Part shown: positions 20,723 to 35,207 of the stretch, one piece after another
How the letters are laid out: each line of letters begins with the position of its first letter
Position numbering within the stretch: the stretch's first letter is position 1
From: Dehalococcoidia bacterium
Lineage (GTDB): Bacteria > Chloroflexota > Dehalococcoidia > Bin125
NCBI GenBank assembly: GCA_965242485.1
Contig: CBDESM010000003.1
Coordinates: 1,357,362-1,421,361, forward strand
DNA length: 64,000 bases
Direction of reading: 5' to 3'
Notes under the pieces: generated by a model
Told to the model about the DNA's origin: nothing
The model's input: the letters and a program-made list of their open reading frames with translations, nothing else
Databases searched by the model: none
Program-made: the position numbers and the translations under genes

Positions 20723-21352
20723 ATGAGCTGCAAAGAGCCCGATGAGGCTCGTTCCGGTTGGGGGCTTTTGCCGTCGCGCATCGTTGCCGCTTGTTCGGGG
20801 CTTCCACGGACGGAACTGGATCGCTGGCGGCGTTGCGGGGTGCTGCCCGTGACGGTTGAGTGCTTGGAAGACGGCGAACCCGGCACGGCCGGCTGGCATT
20901 ACACATGGGCTGAACATCAGCGGGCAATCGCCGCGGCCAAGATGCTCGATCTGGGAATCGGGCAGGAGCAACTTGCCAGCGCGATGCAACGGCTCGACGA
21001 AGCGTGCGAATTCTGGCCAGTCACGCTGCTTCCCGAGTTGTTGGAACGGGAGCTTCCCCGCAGTGTGGAGGCGTGGCGCTTCCGAGCGGAGCGGACGTAC
21101 GAAGGCGCCCTCGGCCGCCTGCGGGATTTCGGCGACGTGGTGCGCATGGAGCATCAGAAGCTGGGCGGGATGCCGACGGTGTGCGGACGCCGGATCGGCA
21201 CGGACATGCTGGCACGCGAACATGACGGCGGCAGCACGATCGAGGAGATCTCCCGCGAGTACTGGATCACGCCGGTTGAAGTGAGGCGCGCCGTCGAATT
21301 CGAGCGGGCCGTCGACGAGTTCTGGCTGGCTGATGCGCCTGCTGCTGGATGA
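20723..21352 (+). CDS. MerR-like HTH + DUF433 protein (paralogue 2)
   Basis: 209 aa. C-terminal EYWITPVEVRRAVEFERA is a DUF433 signature; N-terminus parallels the gene at 376..1017. Overlaps the downstream DUF5615 gene by 20 nt. Confidence 0.6.
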   Translation: MSCKEPDEARSGWGLLPSRIVAACSGLPRTELDRWRRCGVLPVTVECLEDGEPGTAGWHYTWAEHQRAIAAAKMLDLGIGQEQLASAMQRLDEACEFWPVTLLPELLERELPRSVEAWRFRAERTYEGALGRLRDFGDVVRMEHQKLGGMPTVCGRRIGTDMLAREHDGGSTIEEISREYWITPVEVRRAVEFERAVDEFWLADAPAAG

Positions 21353-23502: not shown

Positions 23503-24207
23503 TTGGCGCAGGAGATTGCGCTGCCGGGAACATTGACTGTGCCAGAGGTTGATCAAGGCTCGTTGAGCACTCGCTTGGTGGCTTCGCTTGCCGGTGTTCG
23601 GCCGTCGCGGCTGGACGGTTGGCATCGGCGAAGCATCGTTCGGGCCAGCACTTCCAAGGCATCGCCGCCCAATCGTTGGTACACGTGGCGCCGATACTGC
23701 CAAGTTCGCGCTGCCGCGAAGCTGCTCGGACGCGGCGTCCCCGCGCGGGCGCTGCGCGATGAGATCGACGCTCTCGATGCGACGGTGCGCGACTGGCCGC
23801 TGCTGACCCTTGGCGAGTATCGGCATTGCGGTGTAGAGCCATGCAGTGCCGGCCCGCCGTTCCTCGCGGTCGTTCGAAACGGCGGCGGGCGGGACGTGAT
23901 TTGGTTCTTGCATGACGAGGCAGGCCTTCCAAGCGAGGCCGCGAGGCGCTTGGAAGTGATCGGCGAACTCCAAGTCGAAGGACCGCTCGCCGGGCTTGCG
24001 CAATACAGCCAGTGGATCGACATGCGCCCGTCCGTCCAAGCGGGCTGGCCGACAATCGTCAGTACCAGGATCACGACCGGAACTATTGCCGGGTATGCCT
24101 CGACCGGCATGTCCGCCGCCGAGATCGCAGACACGCTTTGGCTGAATCTGATGTTGGTGGAGAAGGCGCTCGCCTTCCAGGCCGAAGTCGGCATCCCGGC
24201 GTCTTGA
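23503..24207 (+). CDS. MerR-like HTH + DUF433-related protein (paralogue 3, no DUF5615 partner)
   Basis: 234 aa. The N-terminal region aligns with the paralogues at 376 and 20723 (LAGVRPSRLDGWHRR...YTWRRYCQVRAAAKLLGRGV). The C-terminus is divergent. Confidence 0.5.
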   Translation: MAQEIALPGTLTVPEVDQGSLSTRLVASLAGVRPSRLDGWHRRSIVRASTSKASPPNRWYTWRRYCQVRAAAKLLGRGVPARALRDEIDALDATVRDWPLLTLGEYRHCGVEPCSAGPPFLAVVRNGGGRDVIWFLHDEAGLPSEAARRLEVIGELQVEGPLAGLAQYSQWIDMRPSVQAGWPTIVSTRITTGTIAGYASTGMSAAEIADTLWLNLMLVEKALAFQAEVGIPAS

Positions 24208-24432
24208 GCAGCGCACGGTCTGCTGACCGCTGCGACCCCGGCACCAAGCCTGCCAGGAAGACTCAGCCCTTTCGGATGCGGATCTGATCCAGACGGCGCG
24301 CGGATCATGAACATCGTCCAGCGCGGTGCCGTGATCGAGCTGTTGATGCCGGCGGATGTCGATGCCTGGCTCTCGGCGCGGGGCCTCCCGGCGCTCCCGC
24401 CGCGCTGATTCGGGGGCGGCTACCCTGCGTTC

Positions 24433-28502: not shown

Positions 28503-29702
28503 CTACGCGCCGTTGCCCGTCACCGACGCGGGCGGCGGCGGCAGGTGGTAGATGCGCTCGGCAGTGTCGCGCAGCACCTTGCGGCGCACGCCCTCGTCGA
28601 GGTCGGTCAGCACCTCGGTGATGTGCTCCTGCGCCTTCGGGTAGAGGCAGGTCGGGTGCGGGAAATCGGTCTCGAACATCACGTTGTCCTCGCCGATCGC
28701 CTCGATCGTCGCGCGCGGCCCGAAATCCTCGAACCAGAACGACGCGTAGACCTGCCGCCGGAAGTACTCCGAGGGCTTCATCGTCAGGCCCTCGCGCTCC
28801 GTCGGCACCGTCTCCTGCCACTGGTAGTCCATCGCCTCCAGCAGGAACGGCACCCAGCCGATCCCGCTCTCGACCGAGACGAAGTTGAGCCGCGGCCAGC
28901 GCTCCAGCATCCCCGAGAAGATCAGGTTGATGATCACCTTGAAGTTGGTGATGAACAGGCAGATCGAGGCCAGCGCCAGCTGCCGCTGCGGCCCGTAGCC
29001 CTTCCAGACCAGCTTGTCGACCACGCCCGCGCCCGCGCCGATGTGGAAGTTGACCGGCATCTCCAGCGCGTCGCAGGCCTCCCAGAACGGATCCCAAGCC
29101 GGGTCGTTCAGGTAGGGCAGCCCGAACGCTTCCGGCGTGTCGCACATCGTGATCCCGGTCATCCCCATGTCGTGGATGCGCTGCAGCTCCTCGACCGCCG
29201 CCGGAATGTCCCAGAACGGCACCAGCCCCTGCGGGAACAGCCGCCCGTCGCCGGCCGCCTGGAACTCCGCCACCGCGTCGTTGTAGACCGTGCAGCAGAC
29301 GTTGCGCAGTTCTTCGTCCTCGATTTTGATGAAGTTCTGCGAGCCGAACCCGGCCACGTTGGGGTACACGATCTGCTGCGCGATGCCCAGCTTGTCCAGC
29401 AGCCCCAGCCGCGCCACGGGGTCGGTCGCCGCGGCCGACATCTCCTCGAACGAGCCCAGCCCGATCACCCCGTACTCCTTCGACCCGTCCTCTTTCACCA
29501 CCGTGAAGCCGGGCGGCCCGAAATCGATCTGCGACTGCCCGTCGGGCGAGATCGCCCAGCGCACGTCGCCGGCGTCGTTGGTGATGATGTGCGGCACCCG
29601 GTCCTTGAACTTCGCCGGCGCCCGCGAGGTCCACAGGTCGGGCGGCTCCGTGTAATGCGAATCGATGTCCACCACCGGGATCCCGTGCACGGTCAAGCTC
29701 AT
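28503..29702 (-). CDS. Amidohydrolase family protein (PF04909-like, ACMSD-type)
   Basis: Start MSLTVHGIPVVDIDSHYTEPPDLW with GAGGAG RBS. DxH...FHIG...ETDFPH metal-binding pattern. Confidence 0.7.
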   Translation of the reverse strand: MSLTVHGIPVVDIDSHYTEPPDLWTSRAPAKFKDRVPHIITNDAGDVRWAISPDGQSQIDFGPPGFTVVKEDGSKEYGVIGLGSFEEMSAAATDPVARLGLLDKLGIAQQIVYPNVAGFGSQNFIKIEDEELRNVCCTVYNDAVAEFQAAGDGRLFPQGLVPFWDIPAAVEELQRIHDMGMTGITMCDTPEAFGLPYLNDPAWDPFWEACDALEMPVNFHIGAGAGVVDKLVWKGYGPQRQLALASICLFITNFKVIINLIFSGMLERWPRLNFVSVESGIGWVPFLLEAMDYQWQETVPTEREGLTMKPSEYFRRQVYASFWFEDFGPRATIEAIGEDNVMFETDFPHPTCLYPKAQEHITEVLTDLDEGVRRKVLRDTAERIYHLPPPPASVTGNGA

Positions 29703-29791
29703 CTCAGGCTCCTCTCGCCCGTATCCAGCTTCCGTAATCCTAGCCCCGCCGGACCTTGCGGGGCGCGGCGGCCCCGCGATACTCTGGCCGC

Positions 29792-30268
29792 ATGTCCGAA
29801 GGCCGAACCCATCACGAAGTCGCCGAAGCGACCGTCGCCTATCCCGCAACGGGACTTGCCGCTTTGCGCGAGCGGCTGGAGGAGTTCGACGGCTGGCTGA
29901 CGCCGGAGCAGCACCGGGTGATCGACGCGGAAGAGGACGGGGTGCCCGTGCTCTGCTTGCAGCTCTGGGTGCGCGATTACCAGGACATCGGGGCGCGCTG
30001 GGAGGCGCGCGACACGGGCGAGCCGCATCCGCCCACGCTCTACGCCTGGCTCAAGTTCCGCTCCCACCGCAAGGACAAGGCCTGGACCGATGCGGAGATC
30101 GAAGCGGCGCTGGCCGACCTGCACCAAGGCGCGCGCGAGATCAAGGACTCCGAGCCGCTCGAACGATCTCCCGATCCGCCGCCGCCCGGCTACGACGATT
30201 ACGACGTCGAGGATTGGTTCATGGACCTGAGATACGGTTTCACATGGCAGCGTCATCTGAAGTCGTGA
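29792..30268 (+). CDS. Hypothetical protein (copy 1 of a tandem duplicate), occupying the antitoxin position upstream of a PIN gene
   Basis: 158 aa, start MSEGRTHHEV. The start context ctggcNgcATGTCCGAAG is shared with copy 2. Tryptophan-rich, protein-like composition. Overlaps the VapC start by 25 nt. Confidence 0.5.
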   Translation: MSEGRTHHEVAEATVAYPATGLAALRERLEEFDGWLTPEQHRVIDAEEDGVPVLCLQLWVRDYQDIGARWEARDTGEPHPPTLYAWLKFRSHRKDKAWTDAEIEAALADLHQGAREIKDSEPLERSPDPPPPGYDDYDVEDWFMDLRYGFTWQRHLKS

Positions 30269-30684
30269 TCGAGCGCCTGCTCGACACCAACGCCGTGTCG
30301 AACTCCCTCAAACCCCGGATCGCGGCGGCGGTCGCTCCCTACCTGCAGACGCCCGGAGCCTCCGCGATCTCGTTCCAAACCGAGGGCGAGCTGGGCGTTT
30401 GGGCCTCATCGCCGACCATCCCTGCGGTCCACGCGCGGCAGATTCGCGCGTTCGTGCGCGATGCGCCGATTCTCTATGCGAATGAAGCGGTCGTCGCCCA
30501 CTACATCACGATCGTCCGTCGCCGGCGCAACGCGGGCCAGCCCGAAAACGTCAAGGACGCCTGGATCGCCGCTACCGCTCTCGCCTACGGCCTGCCCCTG
30601 ATCACCTTCGACCGCCACGGCTTCAACGACATTCCCGACCTCGATCTCACCCTGCTCCGCCTAGCCGGCCGGCTCCCTCGCTAA
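30244..30684 (+). CDS. vapC: PIN-domain ribonuclease, VapC-like toxin
   Basis: MAASSEVVIERLLDTNAVS...DAWIAATALAYGLPLITFDRHGFNDIPDLDL shows the conserved acidic residues of the PIN fold. Confidence 0.7.
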   Translation: MAASSEVVIERLLDTNAVSNSLKPRIAAAVAPYLQTPGASAISFQTEGELGVWASSPTIPAVHARQIRAFVRDAPILYANEAVVAHYITIVRRRRNAGQPENVKDAWIAATALAYGLPLITFDRHGFNDIPDLDLTLLRLAGRLPR

Positions 30685-30693
30685 TCTGGCTGC

Positions 30694-31185
30694 ATGTCCG
30701 AAGATCGAACCCGGCACGAGTCCACCGAAACCGCCCCGAGGCTTGCCGCGCTGCGCGAGCGGTTGGAGACGTTTGACGGCTGGCTGACGCCGGAGCAGCA
30801 CCGGGTGATCGACGCGGAGGAGGACGGGGTGCCCGTGCTCTGCTTGCAGCTCTGGGTGCGGGATTACCAGGACATCGGGGCGCGCTGGGAGGCGCGCGAT
30901 GCGGGCGAGCCGCATCCGCCCGCGCTCTACGCCTGGGTCAAGTTCCGTTCCCACCGCAAGGACAAGGCTTGGGCCGATGCGGAGATCGAAGCGGCGCTGT
31001 CCGACCTGCGCCAAGGCGCGCGCGAGATCAAGGACTCCGAGCCGCTCGGCAGGTCCCCCGACCCGCCGCCACCCGGTTACGAGGACGACTACGACGTCCA
31101 AGACTGGTTCATGGACCTGAGATACGGCTTCACATGGCAGCCGGCTGCGCCCGCCCGACTTGATCGGGCAGGGCGGATTGCCTGA
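30694..31185 (+). CDS. Hypothetical protein (copy 2 of the tandem duplicate, no PIN partner)
   Basis: 163 aa. About 93% identical at protein level to 29792..30268 over about 150 residues, with a different C-terminal tail. Confidence 0.5.
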   Translation: MSEDRTRHESTETAPRLAALRERLETFDGWLTPEQHRVIDAEEDGVPVLCLQLWVRDYQDIGARWEARDAGEPHPPALYAWVKFRSHRKDKAWADAEIEAALSDLRQGAREIKDSEPLGRSPDPPPPGYEDDYDVQDWFMDLRYGFTWQPAAPARLDRAGRIA

Positions 31186-31233
31186 AGCGCGGACGACGGG
31201 CCGCATTCGCAGCGCGAATGCGGCCCGCTTGGA

Positions 31234-32043
31234 TTAGCTGCCGGAGCCGGAGCCCGAACCGCTGCCGGACCCGGACCCACTGCCAGAGCCTGAACCGCTG
31301 CCCGAGCCAGATCCGCTACCGGAGCCGGAGCCCGAACCGGAGCCGCTGTCGCCGTCGGAAGTTGCGGGGGTGGCAACGGGCACTTGGCTGATGCCTTCGC
31401 CACGATGGGTGTCGAGCTGGCTGGACCAGTAGGTGATCCGGTAGGCGTTGGAGCTCACGGTCGTCCAAGTCTTCCCGTTTTCGGACGGGTAGACGATGTC
31501 CTCCTCGGGGATCGGCAGCGGGTCGCCGTTCCGCATGAACGGGGTCAGCGTGTGCGTGCAGACGTAGTCCTCGACCCGCGTCCACTCGTACCAAGTCTGC
31601 CGCCCGCCGCCGGCGTATGTGACTTCCTTCGTGCGCCCCGTCGGACGCCGGCTGTAGACGTGGTTGACCTCGCAGGTCATCGTCCTCTGGAATGACAGCT
31701 GCGGGTAGCGGCAGGTCTGTTCCGGATAGCCCTCCGGGTAGCCGGAGTACCTCGCGGCGCAAGCCGCGATCCGCGCCTCCTCCGCGGCTTGGGCGTCATC
31801 GTCGCCGCCCGAGCCTTCGCCTGATCCTTCACCTGATCCGTCGCCGGATCCTTCGCCCGAGCCTTCGCTTGAATCCTCGCTCGTCCCTGAGCCCGACCCG
31901 GAGCCTGAGTTGGAATCGTCCGACGGCGATTGGGCGCTCGCCGTCGCGGCCAGCGCGAAGACCGCGCCGACCGCCAGCAGGGCGCCGATCAGAAGCCGGC
32001 CGATCCATTCGCCTGATCCCCTGAGCCTGGTGAAGTCCAGCAT
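31234..32043 (-). CDS. Secreted protein with Gly/Ser-rich low-complexity segments and a C-terminal (GS)n tail
   Basis: Start MLDFTRLRGSGEWIGRLLIGALLAVGAVFALAATASA (signal peptide) with GAGGAG RBS. Lies 18-60 nt downstream of the RM gene on the same strand. The C-terminus is 25 x GS. Confidence 0.5.
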   Translation of the reverse strand: MLDFTRLRGSGEWIGRLLIGALLAVGAVFALAATASAQSPSDDSNSGSGSGSGTSEDSSEGSGEGSGDGSGEGSGEGSGGDDDAQAAEEARIAACAARYSGYPEGYPEQTCRYPQLSFQRTMTCEVNHVYSRRPTGRTKEVTYAGGGRQTWYEWTRVEDYVCTHTLTPFMRNGDPLPIPEEDIVYPSENGKTWTTVSSNAYRITYWSSQLDTHRGEGISQVPVATPATSDGDSGSGSGSGSGSGSGSGSGSGSGSGSGSGSGSGSGSGS

Positions 32044-32102
32044 CGATCTTCTCCTCGCGGTTTCCGGTGTAGTTTCACCATACACAACCTTCGCCGCGCA
32101 AC

Positions 32103-34937
32103 TTACTCACCCGGCTCCGTCAGCCGGCGGTTCGAGACCACGGGCTCCGAGGCCAGCATTCGCCGCAGCGGCGTCAGATCCGGCAGCCCCAGCACCTCCG
32201 CCAAGCCCGCATCCAGCCGTTCCCGCGCCGCGCAATCCGCCATCTCCGGCAAGGGCAGCAGCGTCTCCTCCGCCAATTCCTCGAACAGCGCCGCTAGCCG
32301 CTCCAGCTGCCCATCCGCCAGCTCGCGGACGTCGAGCACCGGCATTTCTTCCAAGTCGCCCTTCTTGAGGCTGACCCAGCCGCCTTCGGTTGTCGTTCGC
32401 GTGCCGAGCAGCGTGAGCAGTCCCAAACTGCTGTTCAGCCACAGCGCGAGGCCAAAATCATGCAGCTCTTCCGTGGTTTTGATCTCCCAGAAGACATTCG
32501 AGAGGACGTCCCGGTCGCATTTCATCGAAACCGTGCGGACGGTGTCCAAGCGCAACCGCTCCGCAACGAGCAGTCGCGCCGCCTTTTGCCAGAGATCCGT
32601 GGCGCTCTTCAATCTGCGTCCGGGTCGTGGTTTCGAGAGCGCTGCTAGATGTTTATTCGGTGCAACGCTCAGCGTTGTTCGTTCATTGGTGTCATGTCCG
32701 GCTACGAGCGGGTATGCCGTGTTGGTATCCGTATAGGTGAATCCGTCCAAGATGTCGCGGCGGTCCGGGCCGATGCTGCCGAGCTCGCCGAGCGGACAGA
32801 TTGGAAGCTCGGCTCTCGTCGACTGTCCTGGTACTTGGACCGTGCTACCGGCGAGCAGTGAGTGTGCTGCACGGGCGAGGTCGCCGCGCGAAAACTGCAC
32901 TCCGTCCCATTGTTCTCCCGTCGCGTCGCCTTGCGGCAGCGATATTGCTTCGCCGATGTGGCGGCCGTCGAGTTCGAGCAGGGCTGCGCCCGTTGCTTCG
33001 AGCTCGGCCGGGGGCGTCGCTCCGATCACGTCGGCGAGGCGGCCCGCGTCAAGCACGTTGTCGGGGTTTTCCCACAGATTCACGTAGGTCGTGCGCGACT
33101 CGCCTGTGTCCCCCTCCGCCCGTTTGGTCGCGATCAGCAGCGCTTCCGAGAGGTCGGTGCTGTCGGAGAAATTCCAGCGCTGCGGGTCGTGCGACGCGAT
33201 CACCATGTCCAAGCGGAAGTCGCGCTCGATCAGCGCCCGCGTCTGCTGCCACGAGCGGCCCGTGCAGACGGTCAGCGGCAGTACCAGCGCCAAGCGCCCC
33301 TCGCCGGCGCGGATTTTCGGCGTCACCGCGGCGACGAATGCAGCGCCGACGCCGGCTACGGCGGATGCGCCCTGCGACTTGAGCCGGGCCTTGATCTCGG
33401 ACTGGATTCGCGTCCGCTCCCTGTCCGGCAGGCTGCCGAAGAGCAGGCTCGAACGGGTGAACGGCGGGTTCATGATCGCCAAATCAAGCGGCGGCAGCAC
33501 CGCCGTATCAACTCCTTCTATTACCCCCCCCCCCCCCCCACTTATAGTATTCATCCCGCGTACCTTGGCGGGAGCAACGACCGCGACCGACTCGCCCGCG
33601 CCGAGCGGGTACTGCACGGCGGCCTCGCTCTGGCCGAGGAAATCGAGCGAGCCGAGCTTGACATCGTCGCTCGATGCTTCCAGCGGCATCACGTACAGGT
33701 TCATCCGGTCGAAGTGGATCGCCGGGTTCAGCATCGCCAAGCTGGTCGCCGCGAAGTGCACCGCCGAAAGCTGCACGTCGAACCCGTGCAGCGCCTGCTC
33801 GACCATCACCTTGTGCAGCGCGTCCTTCTTCTGCCCGCCCGCGGTCACGTGCCGCCGTTCCGCCTCCGACGCGACCGCCATCAGCAGCGTTCCGGTGCCG
33901 CAGGCGATGTCCGCGATGTTCAGCGAGGCCGGGAATTCGTGCTGCGCCCAATCCGTCTGCGGCGGCCACTGGTGGAAGACCAGCCGCGCCAGCATCGTCG
34001 CCGCCGGCACCGACGTGTAGTACGCCCCCGTGAATTTGGCGTCGGATAGCAGCGTGTGGAACAGCCGCCCCGACAAGTCGTGCCCCTCGACGTCGCGCGT
34101 CTGCCTGACCGCGTCGATCAGCGGGTCGATCACCGCGGCCTGCGCCGGCGCGGGCGCGTCGCAGAGGATGTCCAAGAGGTCCGCCGCCAGCTGGAAGACC
34201 GGCACGTAGTCGATCTCGTCGCAGATCGTGCGCCAAGCGTCGCGCAGCCCCGGCGCCCCGCGCTTGGCCGCCTCCGAAACCGTGGGCACCTGCGCGTGCG
34301 CGGCCGAGAGCCGCTCCTCGAAGGCGAGCGCGTTGAACAGCACCAGGCAGCCGATCCGCAGCGCCGCCGCCCGCTCCTTCTCCTTGTCCGACTCCGCGAT
34401 CGCGTCCGCGATCCGCTGCCCGATCCGCGCGTGCCGCGAGACTTCCTTGGCCGCCGTCTCCGTCGCGTAGCGCACCGCGCCGGCCGCCGCGGCCACGCGG
34501 TCGACGCCCTCGACGTGCAGGGGCAGCGCCCGCAGGAAATCGGCCAGCTGATGCGCGCTGCCGCTGCGCAGCTGCGGTTCCGGCTCGACCCGCTCCCGCG
34601 TGCTGTGCAGGTACCAGCTCAGATCCTCCGCCTCGGCTAGCGCCCGCCCCACGTCATCGGCCGTGTCCAGCCCCTGCGGATACAGCACCCCGATCCGCCC
34701 GATCGCGGCCGGGAACTCGCCGATTCGCTCCGCCAGCTGCGCGTCCAACTGCGCCCGTGCCCCCGCCCATTTGCACTCGACCAGCGCGAACTCGTCCCCC
34801 GCGAGCCGCTCGACGCGGATATCCGGCGCATCCCCGTCAAGCCGCTGCTCCGCCGCCGCCGCGATCCCCCGCGCCTTCAGCAACTCCCCCAGCAGCGTAT
34901 TCGCCGCCTCCTCCCGAGACCTCCATCGCCGCACCAT
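32103..34937 (-). CDS. Single-polypeptide nuclease + gamma-class N6-adenine DNA methyltransferase + C-terminal target-recognition region. Type IIL/IIG (MmeI-family-like) restriction-modification enzyme.
   Basis: 945 aa from ATG 34937 (MVRRWRS...). PD-(D/E)xK-like N-terminus (APDIRVERLAGDEFALVECKWAG). GAYYTS (the MmeI-type 'HYTS' motif X). Motif I IADIACGTGTLLMAV. Motif IV IMNPPF. A long C-terminal region. The listed ORF extends to a GTG at 35123 through a degenerate duplicated segment. Confidence 0.65.
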   Translation of the reverse strand: MVRRWRSREEAANTLLGELLKARGIAAAAEQRLDGDAPDIRVERLAGDEFALVECKWAGARAQLDAQLAERIGEFPAAIGRIGVLYPQGLDTADDVGRALAEAEDLSWYLHSTRERVEPEPQLRSGSAHQLADFLRALPLHVEGVDRVAAAAGAVRYATETAAKEVSRHARIGQRIADAIAESDKEKERAAALRIGCLVLFNALAFEERLSAAHAQVPTVSEAAKRGAPGLRDAWRTICDEIDYVPVFQLAADLLDILCDAPAPAQAAVIDPLIDAVRQTRDVEGHDLSGRLFHTLLSDAKFTGAYYTSVPAATMLARLVFHQWPPQTDWAQHEFPASLNIADIACGTGTLLMAVASEAERRHVTAGGQKKDALHKVMVEQALHGFDVQLSAVHFAATSLAMLNPAIHFDRMNLYVMPLEASSDDVKLGSLDFLGQSEAAVQYPLGAGESVAVVAPAKVRGMNTISGGGGGVIEGVDTAVLPPLDLAIMNPPFTRSSLLFGSLPDRERTRIQSEIKARLKSQGASAVAGVGAAFVAAVTPKIRAGEGRLALVLPLTVCTGRSWQQTRALIERDFRLDMVIASHDPQRWNFSDSTDLSEALLIATKRAEGDTGESRTTYVNLWENPDNVLDAGRLADVIGATPPAELEATGAALLELDGRHIGEAISLPQGDATGEQWDGVQFSRGDLARAAHSLLAGSTVQVPGQSTRAELPICPLGELGSIGPDRRDILDGFTYTDTNTAYPLVAGHDTNERTTLSVAPNKHLAALSKPRPGRRLKSATDLWQKAARLLVAERLRLDTVRTVSMKCDRDVLSNVFWEIKTTEELHDFGLALWLNSSLGLLTLLGTRTTTEGGWVSLKKGDLEEMPVLDVRELADGQLERLAALFEELAEETLLPLPEMADCAARERLDAGLAEVLGLPDLTPLRRMLASEPVVSNRRLTEPGE
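33524..33539. repeat. Homopolymeric C16 (G16 on the coding strand) inside the RM gene
   Basis: Read directly from the sequence: ttaCCCCCCCCCCCCCCCCactt. On the coding strand it encodes SGGGGGV in-frame, and it is flanked by unusually AT-rich codons. Confidence 0.9.
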
Positions 34938-34939
34938 GC

Positions 34940-35207
34940 CCCCATTGTCGCACAGCGCCCCGGCCGTCCCGTTTAACCGCGCGTGCCGCGAGATTTCCTT
35001 GGCCGCCGTCTCCGTCGCGTAGCGCACCGCGCCAGCGGCGGCCACGCGGTCGACGACCTCAATGTGCTGGGGCAGCGCCCGCCCCATATCCTCGGTCGTG
35101 TCCAGCCCCTGCGGATACAGCACCCTGATTTACCCGATCGCCGCCGGGAACGCGCCGATTCGCTCCGCCAACTGCGCCCGGGCCCCCGCCCATTTGCACT
35201 GGTGCGA
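34940..35207 (-). pseudogene. Degenerate duplicate of codons ~45–115 of the RM gene (contains an in-frame TAA)
   Basis: Minus-strand translation reads ...QCKWAGARAQLAERIGAFPAAIG*IRVLYPQGLDTTEDMGRALPQHIEVVDRVAAAGAVRYATETAAKEISRHAR. This is homologous to the RM gene segment KWAGARAQLDAQLAERIGEFPAAIGRIGVLYPQGLDTADD...SRHAR. About 90% DNA identity to 34420–34760. Confidence 0.4.

Follow-up and report, generated by a model that had tools for sequence, protein, structure and literature searches.

The X-PIN Cluster

The 64,000-nt stretch of Dehalococcoidia DNA analyzed here (the window; G+C content, 68.6%) carries a compact cluster in which a gene for a PIN-domain, VapC-like protein lies between two paralogous genes, X1 and X2, of a protein family termed X (Table 1). 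The PIN protein and X1 are considered here as the putative toxin and candidate antitoxin of a type II toxin-antitoxin (TA) module, with X2 as an orphan paralog, and 16 related loci (L001-L016) were used for comparison. The original prediction for this DNA, drawn up from its letters, had placed two X copies and a PIN gene in the region, and all three open reading frames (ORFs) are found there. Their plus-strand frames are backed by a G+C content of 82-84% at third codon positions versus 45-50% at second positions, and the long antisense ORFs are the usual artefacts of high-GC DNA. X-PIN and X-PIN-X' layouts, X' denoting an orphan copy, recur across independent metagenome assemblies, so that the arrangement is not a chance one.

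The boundaries of the duplication were mapped by DNA alignment, as the original prediction had advised, and with a repeat finder. The repeat extends from ~17 nt 5' of each ATG (29773/30675) to ...TTCACATGGCAGC (30251/31141), and thus includes the first 8 nt of the PIN ORF if this begins at its ATG. X2 begins 9 nt past the PIN stop codon, which places the copy first described as solitary within the same compact cluster, and its last 14 codons (PAAPARLDRAGRIA) are sequence specific to the window. The 25-nt overlap first reported between X1 and the PIN gene holds for a start of the latter at ATG 30244, but shrinks to 4 nt (GTGA) for one at GTG 30265; related loci have one start, the other, or both, and the PIN start therefore cannot be fixed from sequence alone.

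Table 1. Positions of the X-PIN cluster and adjoining features in the window.
Feature	Position	Strand	Description	Basis
-10-like hexamer of X1	29780..29785	+	TACTCT (TANNNT) with CGA before it; first T 12 nt before the X1 ATG	
X1	29792-30268	+	158-aa acidic Trp-rich protein, candidate antitoxin	ORF and alignments, AlphaFold model
PIN-domain (VapC-like) gene	30244 or 30265 to 30684	+	putative toxin	Pfam PF01850
-10-like hexamer of X2	30682..30687	+	TAATCT (TANNNT) with CGC before it	
X2 (X')	30694-31185	+	163-aa orphan paralog of X1; homologous part stops at 31141	
Window-specific segment	31142..32102		no counterpart in five related loci	blastn against L001-L006, junction sequences, Pfam
Hairpin	31194..31231		G+C-rich, between the convergent X2 and GS-repeat genes	RNA fold
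GS-repeat secreted-protein gene	31234-32085	-	283 aa; inside the window-specific segment	
Restriction-modification (RM)-like gene	32103-35123	-	1006 aa; convergent with the X-PIN cluster	

The PIN Protein and Its Constant Partner

The putative toxin matches Pfam PF01850 (E 4.3e-10; 40.7 bits, cut-off 23.6) and can be aligned with the solved VapC structure 6nkl. The NCBIfam VapC equivalog models also match it, at scores below their cut-offs, which marks it as a member of a divergent VapC-like subfamily. The acidic quartet of the active site (D14, E49, D105, and D123) is present in the window protein and invariant in 20/20 PINs of the subfamily, and judged by its residues the window PIN is a plausible active toxin.

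The partner family is narrowly distributed. A search of 5.8 billion proteins yielded 15 X clusters at 90% identity, and one of 1.84 billion added 5 remote representatives; a single one of 185,579 species genomes, a Dehalococcoidia metagenome-assembled genome (OZ242037.1, L003), carries the gene. The family is restricted to a handful of uncultured Dehalococcoidia-like metagenome lineages. In searches of these protein collections, the PIN subfamily comprises 32 clusters. Gene contexts were taken from the 16 related loci after re-annotation with hidden Markov models of X and PIN. Every one of the 20 distinct intact PINs in the window and these loci has an intact X directly upstream, the two genes overlapping by as much as 28 nt or lying at most 2 nt apart, and this pairing extends to members whose identity to the window protein is only 38-50% (L007, L008, L011-L015). 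No PIN without X was found in the window or the 16 loci, each PIN context examined holding an X, whereas ~9 X copies lack an intact PIN. The arrays comprise three X-PIN pairs in L005 and L013, two pairs in L012, X-PIN-X-PIN-X' in L004, X-PIN-X' in L001 as in the window, X'-X-PIN in L002, L003, and L016, and X' alone in L006; L014 and L015 have one truncated PIN each (95 and 111 aa, respectively).

Two of the remoter groups differ in their surroundings. L012-L015 represent a more divergent second clade with arrays of 2-3 X-PIN pairs at another conserved site (e.g., L013 2432-5294), between a DEAD-box helicase gene and an F420H2-quinone-reductase/ammonium-transporter cluster. L008-L010 (the P0016 clade; e.g., L008 4637-4972) have an extra conserved 111-aa ORF directly upstream of X-PIN, which has no Pfam match and could be a third component.

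The X Protein

X1 is an acidic protein with an isoelectric point (pI) of 4.75, and all X members share this character (pI 4.4-5.5). The original description of X as Trp-rich and without a recognizable family is borne out: Trp accounts for 7 of the 158 residues of X1 (4.4%) and for 4-5% of residues in family members, and searches of Pfam, NCBIfam, PADLOC, and PHROGs returned no family match for any of the 21 X members, just as sequence and profile searches of the PDB gave none. Matches to DUF4995 (E 0.02, 6/21 members) and, in the PDB, to ribosomal protein S14 and DnaJ2 (E >0.04) were judged to be due to chance, and a mobile-element origin was set aside since viral contigs, phages, plasmids, and JGI metagenomes hold no match to X. 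These database searches revealed no AbrB, RHH, Phd, MerR, or HTH domain in X. They also gave no enzymatic assignment, and the PIN protein keeps its acidic residues; the original prediction had named an unrelated enzymatic family for X, or a PIN lacking those residues, as evidence against a TA role.

Residues 20-120 of X1 form an alpha/beta core, which a PPPPGY linker joins to the invariant motif of the C-terminus, GY-x-DYD-xx-DW-xx-DLR-x-G. AlphaFold modeling with 17 sequences reached a mean predicted local distance difference test score (pLDDT) of 68, which rose to 83.5, with a predicted TM-score (pTM) of 0.68, when 21 sequences including the remote members were used. In the model of X1, residues 1-15 are disordered and are followed by helix a1 (21-30), strands b1 (40-48) and b2 (51-62), helix a2 (63-74), strand b3 (83-93), helix a3 (100-120), the Pro-rich linker SPDPPPPGY, and two short helices within residues 139-157. 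Foldseek comparison of the model found nothing convincing in either the PDB (best E 0.13, TM-score <=0.3) or BFVD (best E 0.02, TM-score 0.2-0.4).

Orphan X Copies and Deletion of PIN

The related loci show how X copies come to stand without a toxin gene. The tails of X' in L001 and L006 reproduce, exactly or nearly so, the last 31 nt of a PIN gene plus its downstream flank, with alignment scores of 132-142 versus a shuffle maximum of 35. L004 and L005 come from the same sample, and the X' of L004 corresponds to the third L005 pair minus its PIN. The protein P0003 ends in the PIN C-terminal peptide GFNHIPDLDLTL, which points to a deletion between the RYGF and RHGF microhomologies. These sequences show the orphan X copies of the relatives to be products of PIN deletion. 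L004 (5098-7407) and L005 (3748-6440), both from ERZ23495684, represent strain variants that co-exist: of the three intact X-PIN pairs present in L005, L004 shares the first two, and its third X is a different allele with the PIN deleted.

These scars bear on the second option of the original prediction, by which X would be an ordinary gene outside TA systems and a mobile vapC cassette would have inserted behind one of its two copies. All that favors such an insertion is that copy 2 lacks a PIN and that X carries no TA-family annotation. The X-PIN pair is present in all clades, the most divergent included, this PIN subfamily is found only with X, the two proteins co-diverge (Mantel r 0.70-0.80), and the orphan state in relatives is a derived one that retains scars of the PIN 5' and 3' ends. 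The paired state is thus ancestral, and insertion of a cassette into a gene of another kind is regarded as extremely improbable.

In the window itself, the region behind X2 differs from that of the relatives. Past 31141 the homology to five related loci breaks off, to be regained at ~32103-32110, where the 3' end of the RM-like gene lies, and the ~960-nt segment in between, which holds the X2 tail, the hairpin, and the GS-repeat gene, occupies the site at which relatives have a PIN gene or remnant abutting the RM-like 3' end. An 8/9 match (CCGGCTGCG / CCGGCTCCG) is present at both junctions of the segment. The GS-repeat protein combines a signal or transmembrane segment with extended low-complexity stretches of (GS)n and (SGEG)n and with a core that contains Cys; its gene is absent from the equivalent position in the five related loci and may have replaced a second PIN. 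The hairpin is strongly stable (-34.7 kcal/mol, z -4.95, with 0/200 shuffles as stable) and is likely a bidirectional terminator, though it has no U tract and a consensus terminator scan did not call it.

X2 looks to be still functional and under purifying selection: its comparison with X1 gives dS 0.30 and dN/dS 0.19, it retains all 18 family-invariant residues, and it has a promoter-like element of its own, CGC-TAATCT. Its C-terminal part (C part) differs from that of X1 at few positions, and this closeness makes cross-neutralization of the single remaining PIN plausible.

Probable Gene Conversion and Co-divergence With PIN

The near-identity of the two X copies had originally been taken as the mark of a recent duplication, at ~93% identity overall. 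That figure holds for a gapless 300-nt core (93% by repeat finder), but not elsewhere: identity falls to 73% in the first 25 codons, which also contain a 5-codon indel, and to 86% in the C part, and over the 148 aligned codons it is 90% at the nucleotide and 89% at the amino acid level. The pattern is a mosaic. Codons 20-110 of X1 and X2 are 94% identical to each other versus 70-78% to any copy in other genomes, and codons 111-155 are 86% identical, with X2 equally near (85-86%) to type B copies elsewhere. In L002 and L003 likewise, N-domains are 92-95% identical within a genome and C parts 79-82%, and which C-part type is the orphan's is reversed from one of these genomes to the other. The mosaic in the window and its recurrence in L002 and L003 argue for gene conversion between old paralogs, and the sequences fit a process that homogenizes the antitoxin body and not the PIN-adjacent part.

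A simple recent tandem duplication was accordingly rejected on the value of dS, the non-uniform identity, the same homogenization in sister genomes, and the other arrangements seen in relatives (X'-X-PIN, X-PIN-X-PIN-X', and three pairs). A related proposal, that X2 is a recent local duplicate on its way to becoming a pseudogene, with no role and with a tail created at the duplication breakpoint, would account for the 93-94% identity over the central 300 nt and for the end of homology 8 nt into the PIN ORF, and one relative's orphan (P0015, L016) is indeed frameshifted. It is harder to reconcile with dS ~0.3 and dN/dS 0.19, with a C part as near to other genomes as to X1, with X2-type tails in other metagenome clusters (P0001 and P0002), with the origin of the relatives' orphans by PIN deletion rather than by partial duplication, and with the retention of all invariant residues and the promoter motif, and is considered quite improbable.

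The C part is also the region whose history follows that of the toxin. In the close clade, distances between X C parts correlate with distances between PINs (r 0.71), whereas N-domain distances do not (r 0.07), and the C-part variants DYDVEDW and DYDIQDW follow PIN types A and B. Across the whole family, all parts of X co-diverge with PIN (r 0.70-0.80, Mantel p <0.0005). This covariation supports, but does not prove, a predicted role of the C part as specificity determinant; as proof of contact it was rejected owing to the confounding effect of linkage. Accelerated divergence of the X-PIN region was also rejected, the difference between its DNA identity to L002/L003 (76-80%) and that of the flanks (80-86%) being too small.

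Expression Signals

A CGN-TANNNT element, its first T 12 nt before the ATG, precedes each close X copy, also where the copy follows a PIN gene, and there is no Shine-Dalgarno (SD) sequence. This placement matches the signal of leaderless genes in high-GC bacteria, although such genes are predicted in only 4/12 Chloroflexi genomes and there make up ~5% of genes (PMC3160421). The position of TACTCT before X1 suggests a leaderless-type promoter. Before X2, TAATCT opens with the PIN stop codon TAA and ends 6 nt before the X2 ATG; PIN termination and X2 initiation are packed into 12 nt. From its CGC-TAATCT element, X2 is probably an independent leaderless transcription unit.

In M. tuberculosis, promoters of the TANNNT type are used and 32/37 TA pairs with a mapped transcription start site are leaderless (PMC3898074). 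The window cluster resembles these operons in having a CGN-TANNNT -10 element 6 nt before the antitoxin start codon, but its host is Dehalococcoidia-like, its motif is read from sequence, and remote X members have instead a ~20-nt, SD-bearing leader with GAGGAG. Consensus scans for sigma-70 promoters and for terminators found no site, and Rfam no RNA family in 29000-32500. Upstream of X1, an inverted repeat (GCCCCGC/GCGGGGC) is present at 29743-29777; inverted repeats here were set aside as evidence for an operator because they are not conserved in the syntenic L002, L003, and L006.

A Candidate Antitoxin of a New Family

The X1-PIN pair is probably a VapC-type type II TA module whose antitoxin belongs to a new acidic family of 150-175 aa, accompanied by the orphan X2, a reading that is favored with some reserve. 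It rests on the upstream position and coupling of X, its acidic nature, the intact active site of the PIN, their exclusive co-occurrence, and the one-sidedness of gene loss. The first option of the original prediction, an atypically large antitoxin family without an RHH, AbrB, or Phd domain that has left an orphan copy, is thereby supported at the level of comparative evidence: pairing persists down to ~40% identity, the genes overlap or abut, the catalytic residues are intact, and only PIN is ever lost.

In the mechanism proposed, X would be made first, from a leaderless-type transcript, and the PIN would then be translated by coupling through the 4- or 25-nt overlap, so that X could bind and block it. 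The family-invariant segment PPGY-x-DYD-xx-DW-xx-DLR-x-G at the C-terminus is the most likely binding part, since its history tracks the PIN type; its invariant Arg147 together with its acidic and aromatic residues could fill the acidic active site and the basic RNA-binding surface of the PIN. With no DNA-binding domain detected in X, it is doubtful that the antitoxin exerts classical autorepression. X2 would stem from a tandem array, as the antitoxin of a second X-PIN pair that has lost its PIN; gene conversion would have homogenized its N-domain with that of X1, and its probable role is to provide additional or cross-reacting antitoxin for the single PIN that is left.

Several observations weigh against this interpretation. 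Searches of Pfam, NCBIfam, and the PDB detected no DNA-binding domain in X, and no conserved operator palindrome was found upstream of X, both of which are unusual for a type II antitoxin. In the better AlphaFold model the C-terminal helices have pLDDT values of 74-89, and the conserved C-terminal motif may accordingly belong to the fold and not form a free tail that binds the toxin. Covariation between C part and PIN could simply reflect physical linkage, the C part lying beside the PIN gene. At X2, nhmmer with a PIN DNA profile found no PIN remnant behind the gene, and the best pairwise PIN alignment there was reached by 10/500 shuffles (p ~0.02), so that loss of a PIN at this position is argued by analogy and from the break in synteny. 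A weak colinear match behind X2 to PIN nt 29-82 is no more than suggestive and is not counted as a remnant. The asymmetry of loss, finally, is also compatible with an independent primary function of X.

The main rival view is that X is not an antitoxin but another kind of obligate PIN partner, such as an adaptor for substrates, a sensor, or the regulatory subunit in a two-gene system for RNA processing or phage defense, with a function of its own that lets it survive PIN loss. Pairing and co-divergence would be expected equally of any obligate heterodimer, and the size of X (twice that of VapB), its globular AlphaFold model without a DNA-binding domain, the retention of X alone in the L006 genome, and the position of close-clade arrays next to an RM-like methyltransferase/nuclease gene would all suit such a role. 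That linkage is absent from the remote clades, however, and no PADLOC model of a known anti-phage defense system matches X or PIN. Upstream position, overlap, an acidic partner, and no PIN without X make up the classical TA signature, and the nuclease has been lost repeatedly and precisely while X never has, as is predicted for a toxic product. A partner of this other kind is held to be unlikely, and the TA module is preferred.

A more far-reaching form of the TA interpretation is offered tentatively, and as a whole is rather doubtful. X would here represent an antitoxin class of novel structure, built on a new alpha/beta fold without a DNA-binding module, and would neutralize PIN RNases through its invariant acidic/aromatic C-terminal motif, and the arrays would be recombining cassettes. 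Conversion would homogenize the antitoxin body while the toxin-specifying C part and the PIN diversify, and toxins would be deleted repeatedly; the surviving orphans might buffer the remaining toxins or guard against incoming ones (anti-addiction).

Comparison With Known TA Systems

The cluster resembles VapBC modules in its ~140-aa PIN toxin with four conserved acidic residues, in the acidic partner encoded directly upstream with an overlap of 4 or 25 nt, in the presence of several copies per genome, and in the preferential decay of the toxin gene. It departs from them in that X, at 158 aa, is ~2 times the size of VapB (about 70-90 aa), has no AbrB, RHH, Phd, MerR, or HTH domain, and has no relative by sequence or Foldseek. 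The partners of PIN catalogued by Makarova et al. (2009; PMC2701414) comprise RHH, AbrB, PHD, COG2442, COG2886, COG2856, and MerR, and X is not among them. Precedents for antitoxins outside the classical VapB folds are provided by DUF433/COG2442 with PIN or DUF5615 and by COG2886 with PIN, and PIN-type pairs of DUF433/COG2442 and COG2886 are abundant in Chloroflexi (PMC2701414). DUF433/DUF5615 pairs occur in the window and in L002, but DUF433 is a helical domain of 70-80 aa classed as DNA/RNA-binding, whereas X is an unrelated ~158-aa alpha/beta protein with no DUF433 match.

Swapping of antitoxin partners is widespread, as illustrated by NetFlax and Panacea/PanA (PMC10440598), in which, as here, a common toxin fold is joined to an unrelated antitoxin domain recognized only by its conserved two-gene neighborhood. 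Unlike PanA, X is not promiscuous and pairs with a single PIN subfamily, is limited to few metagenome lineages, and is known from sequence alone. The intact, toxinless X2 beside an intact module is reminiscent of orphan antitoxins left by toxin loss and could, like these, cross-neutralize or act against addiction. Two features set the present case apart, namely that deletion scars can be read in sister genomes and that the orphan N-domain is near-identical to that of its paralog through gene conversion.

Neighboring Elements in the Window

The 1006-aa RM-like gene, which has a PD-(D/E)xK-like motif (DEFALVECKW), an NPPF methyltransferase motif, and weak PADLOC matches to MTase_II/IIG, appears to encode a restriction-modification enzyme of the fused type. 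Its position is syntenic in L002-L004 and L006, where the gene is sometimes split into two ORFs. At and upstream of its 5' end, regions 34425-34777 and 34977-35200 contain a ~220-nt partial direct duplication (87-97% identical, spacing 423-552 nt) that repeats the peptide VLYPQGLDT...RVAAAGAVRYATETAAKE, and the annotated N-terminus may for this reason be a duplicated fragment.

Elsewhere in the window, a DUF433 antitoxin-like gene (23503-24207, +; Pfam E 1.9e-8) is followed by only the last ~39 codons of a DUF5615 PIN-like partner (24283-24399), a pair that is intact in L002; this is a second case in the window of toxin loss leaving an orphan antitoxin. Additional tblastn matches to DUF433 at 789-415 (-) and 21101-21313 (+), and to the N-terminal half of DUF5615 at 395-162 (-), point to several TA-like modules in the window.

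Significance

The X family is previously undescribed and probably one of antitoxins. Its reach is limited, in that it occurs in few uncultured Dehalococcoidia-like lineages and new antitoxin domains turn up fairly often. If X neutralizes its PIN, VapC/PIN, the largest toxin superfamily, would gain antitoxins of unrelated structure in which no DNA-binding domain can be detected, which would raise the question of how such a module is regulated. In the sister genomes, intact pairs, PIN-deletion scars, and probable orphan antitoxins under selection stand side by side as a natural record of TA decay, and because gene conversion appears to have acted on one half of the antitoxin only, the steps of TA decay and of antitoxin specificity may be read from this record.

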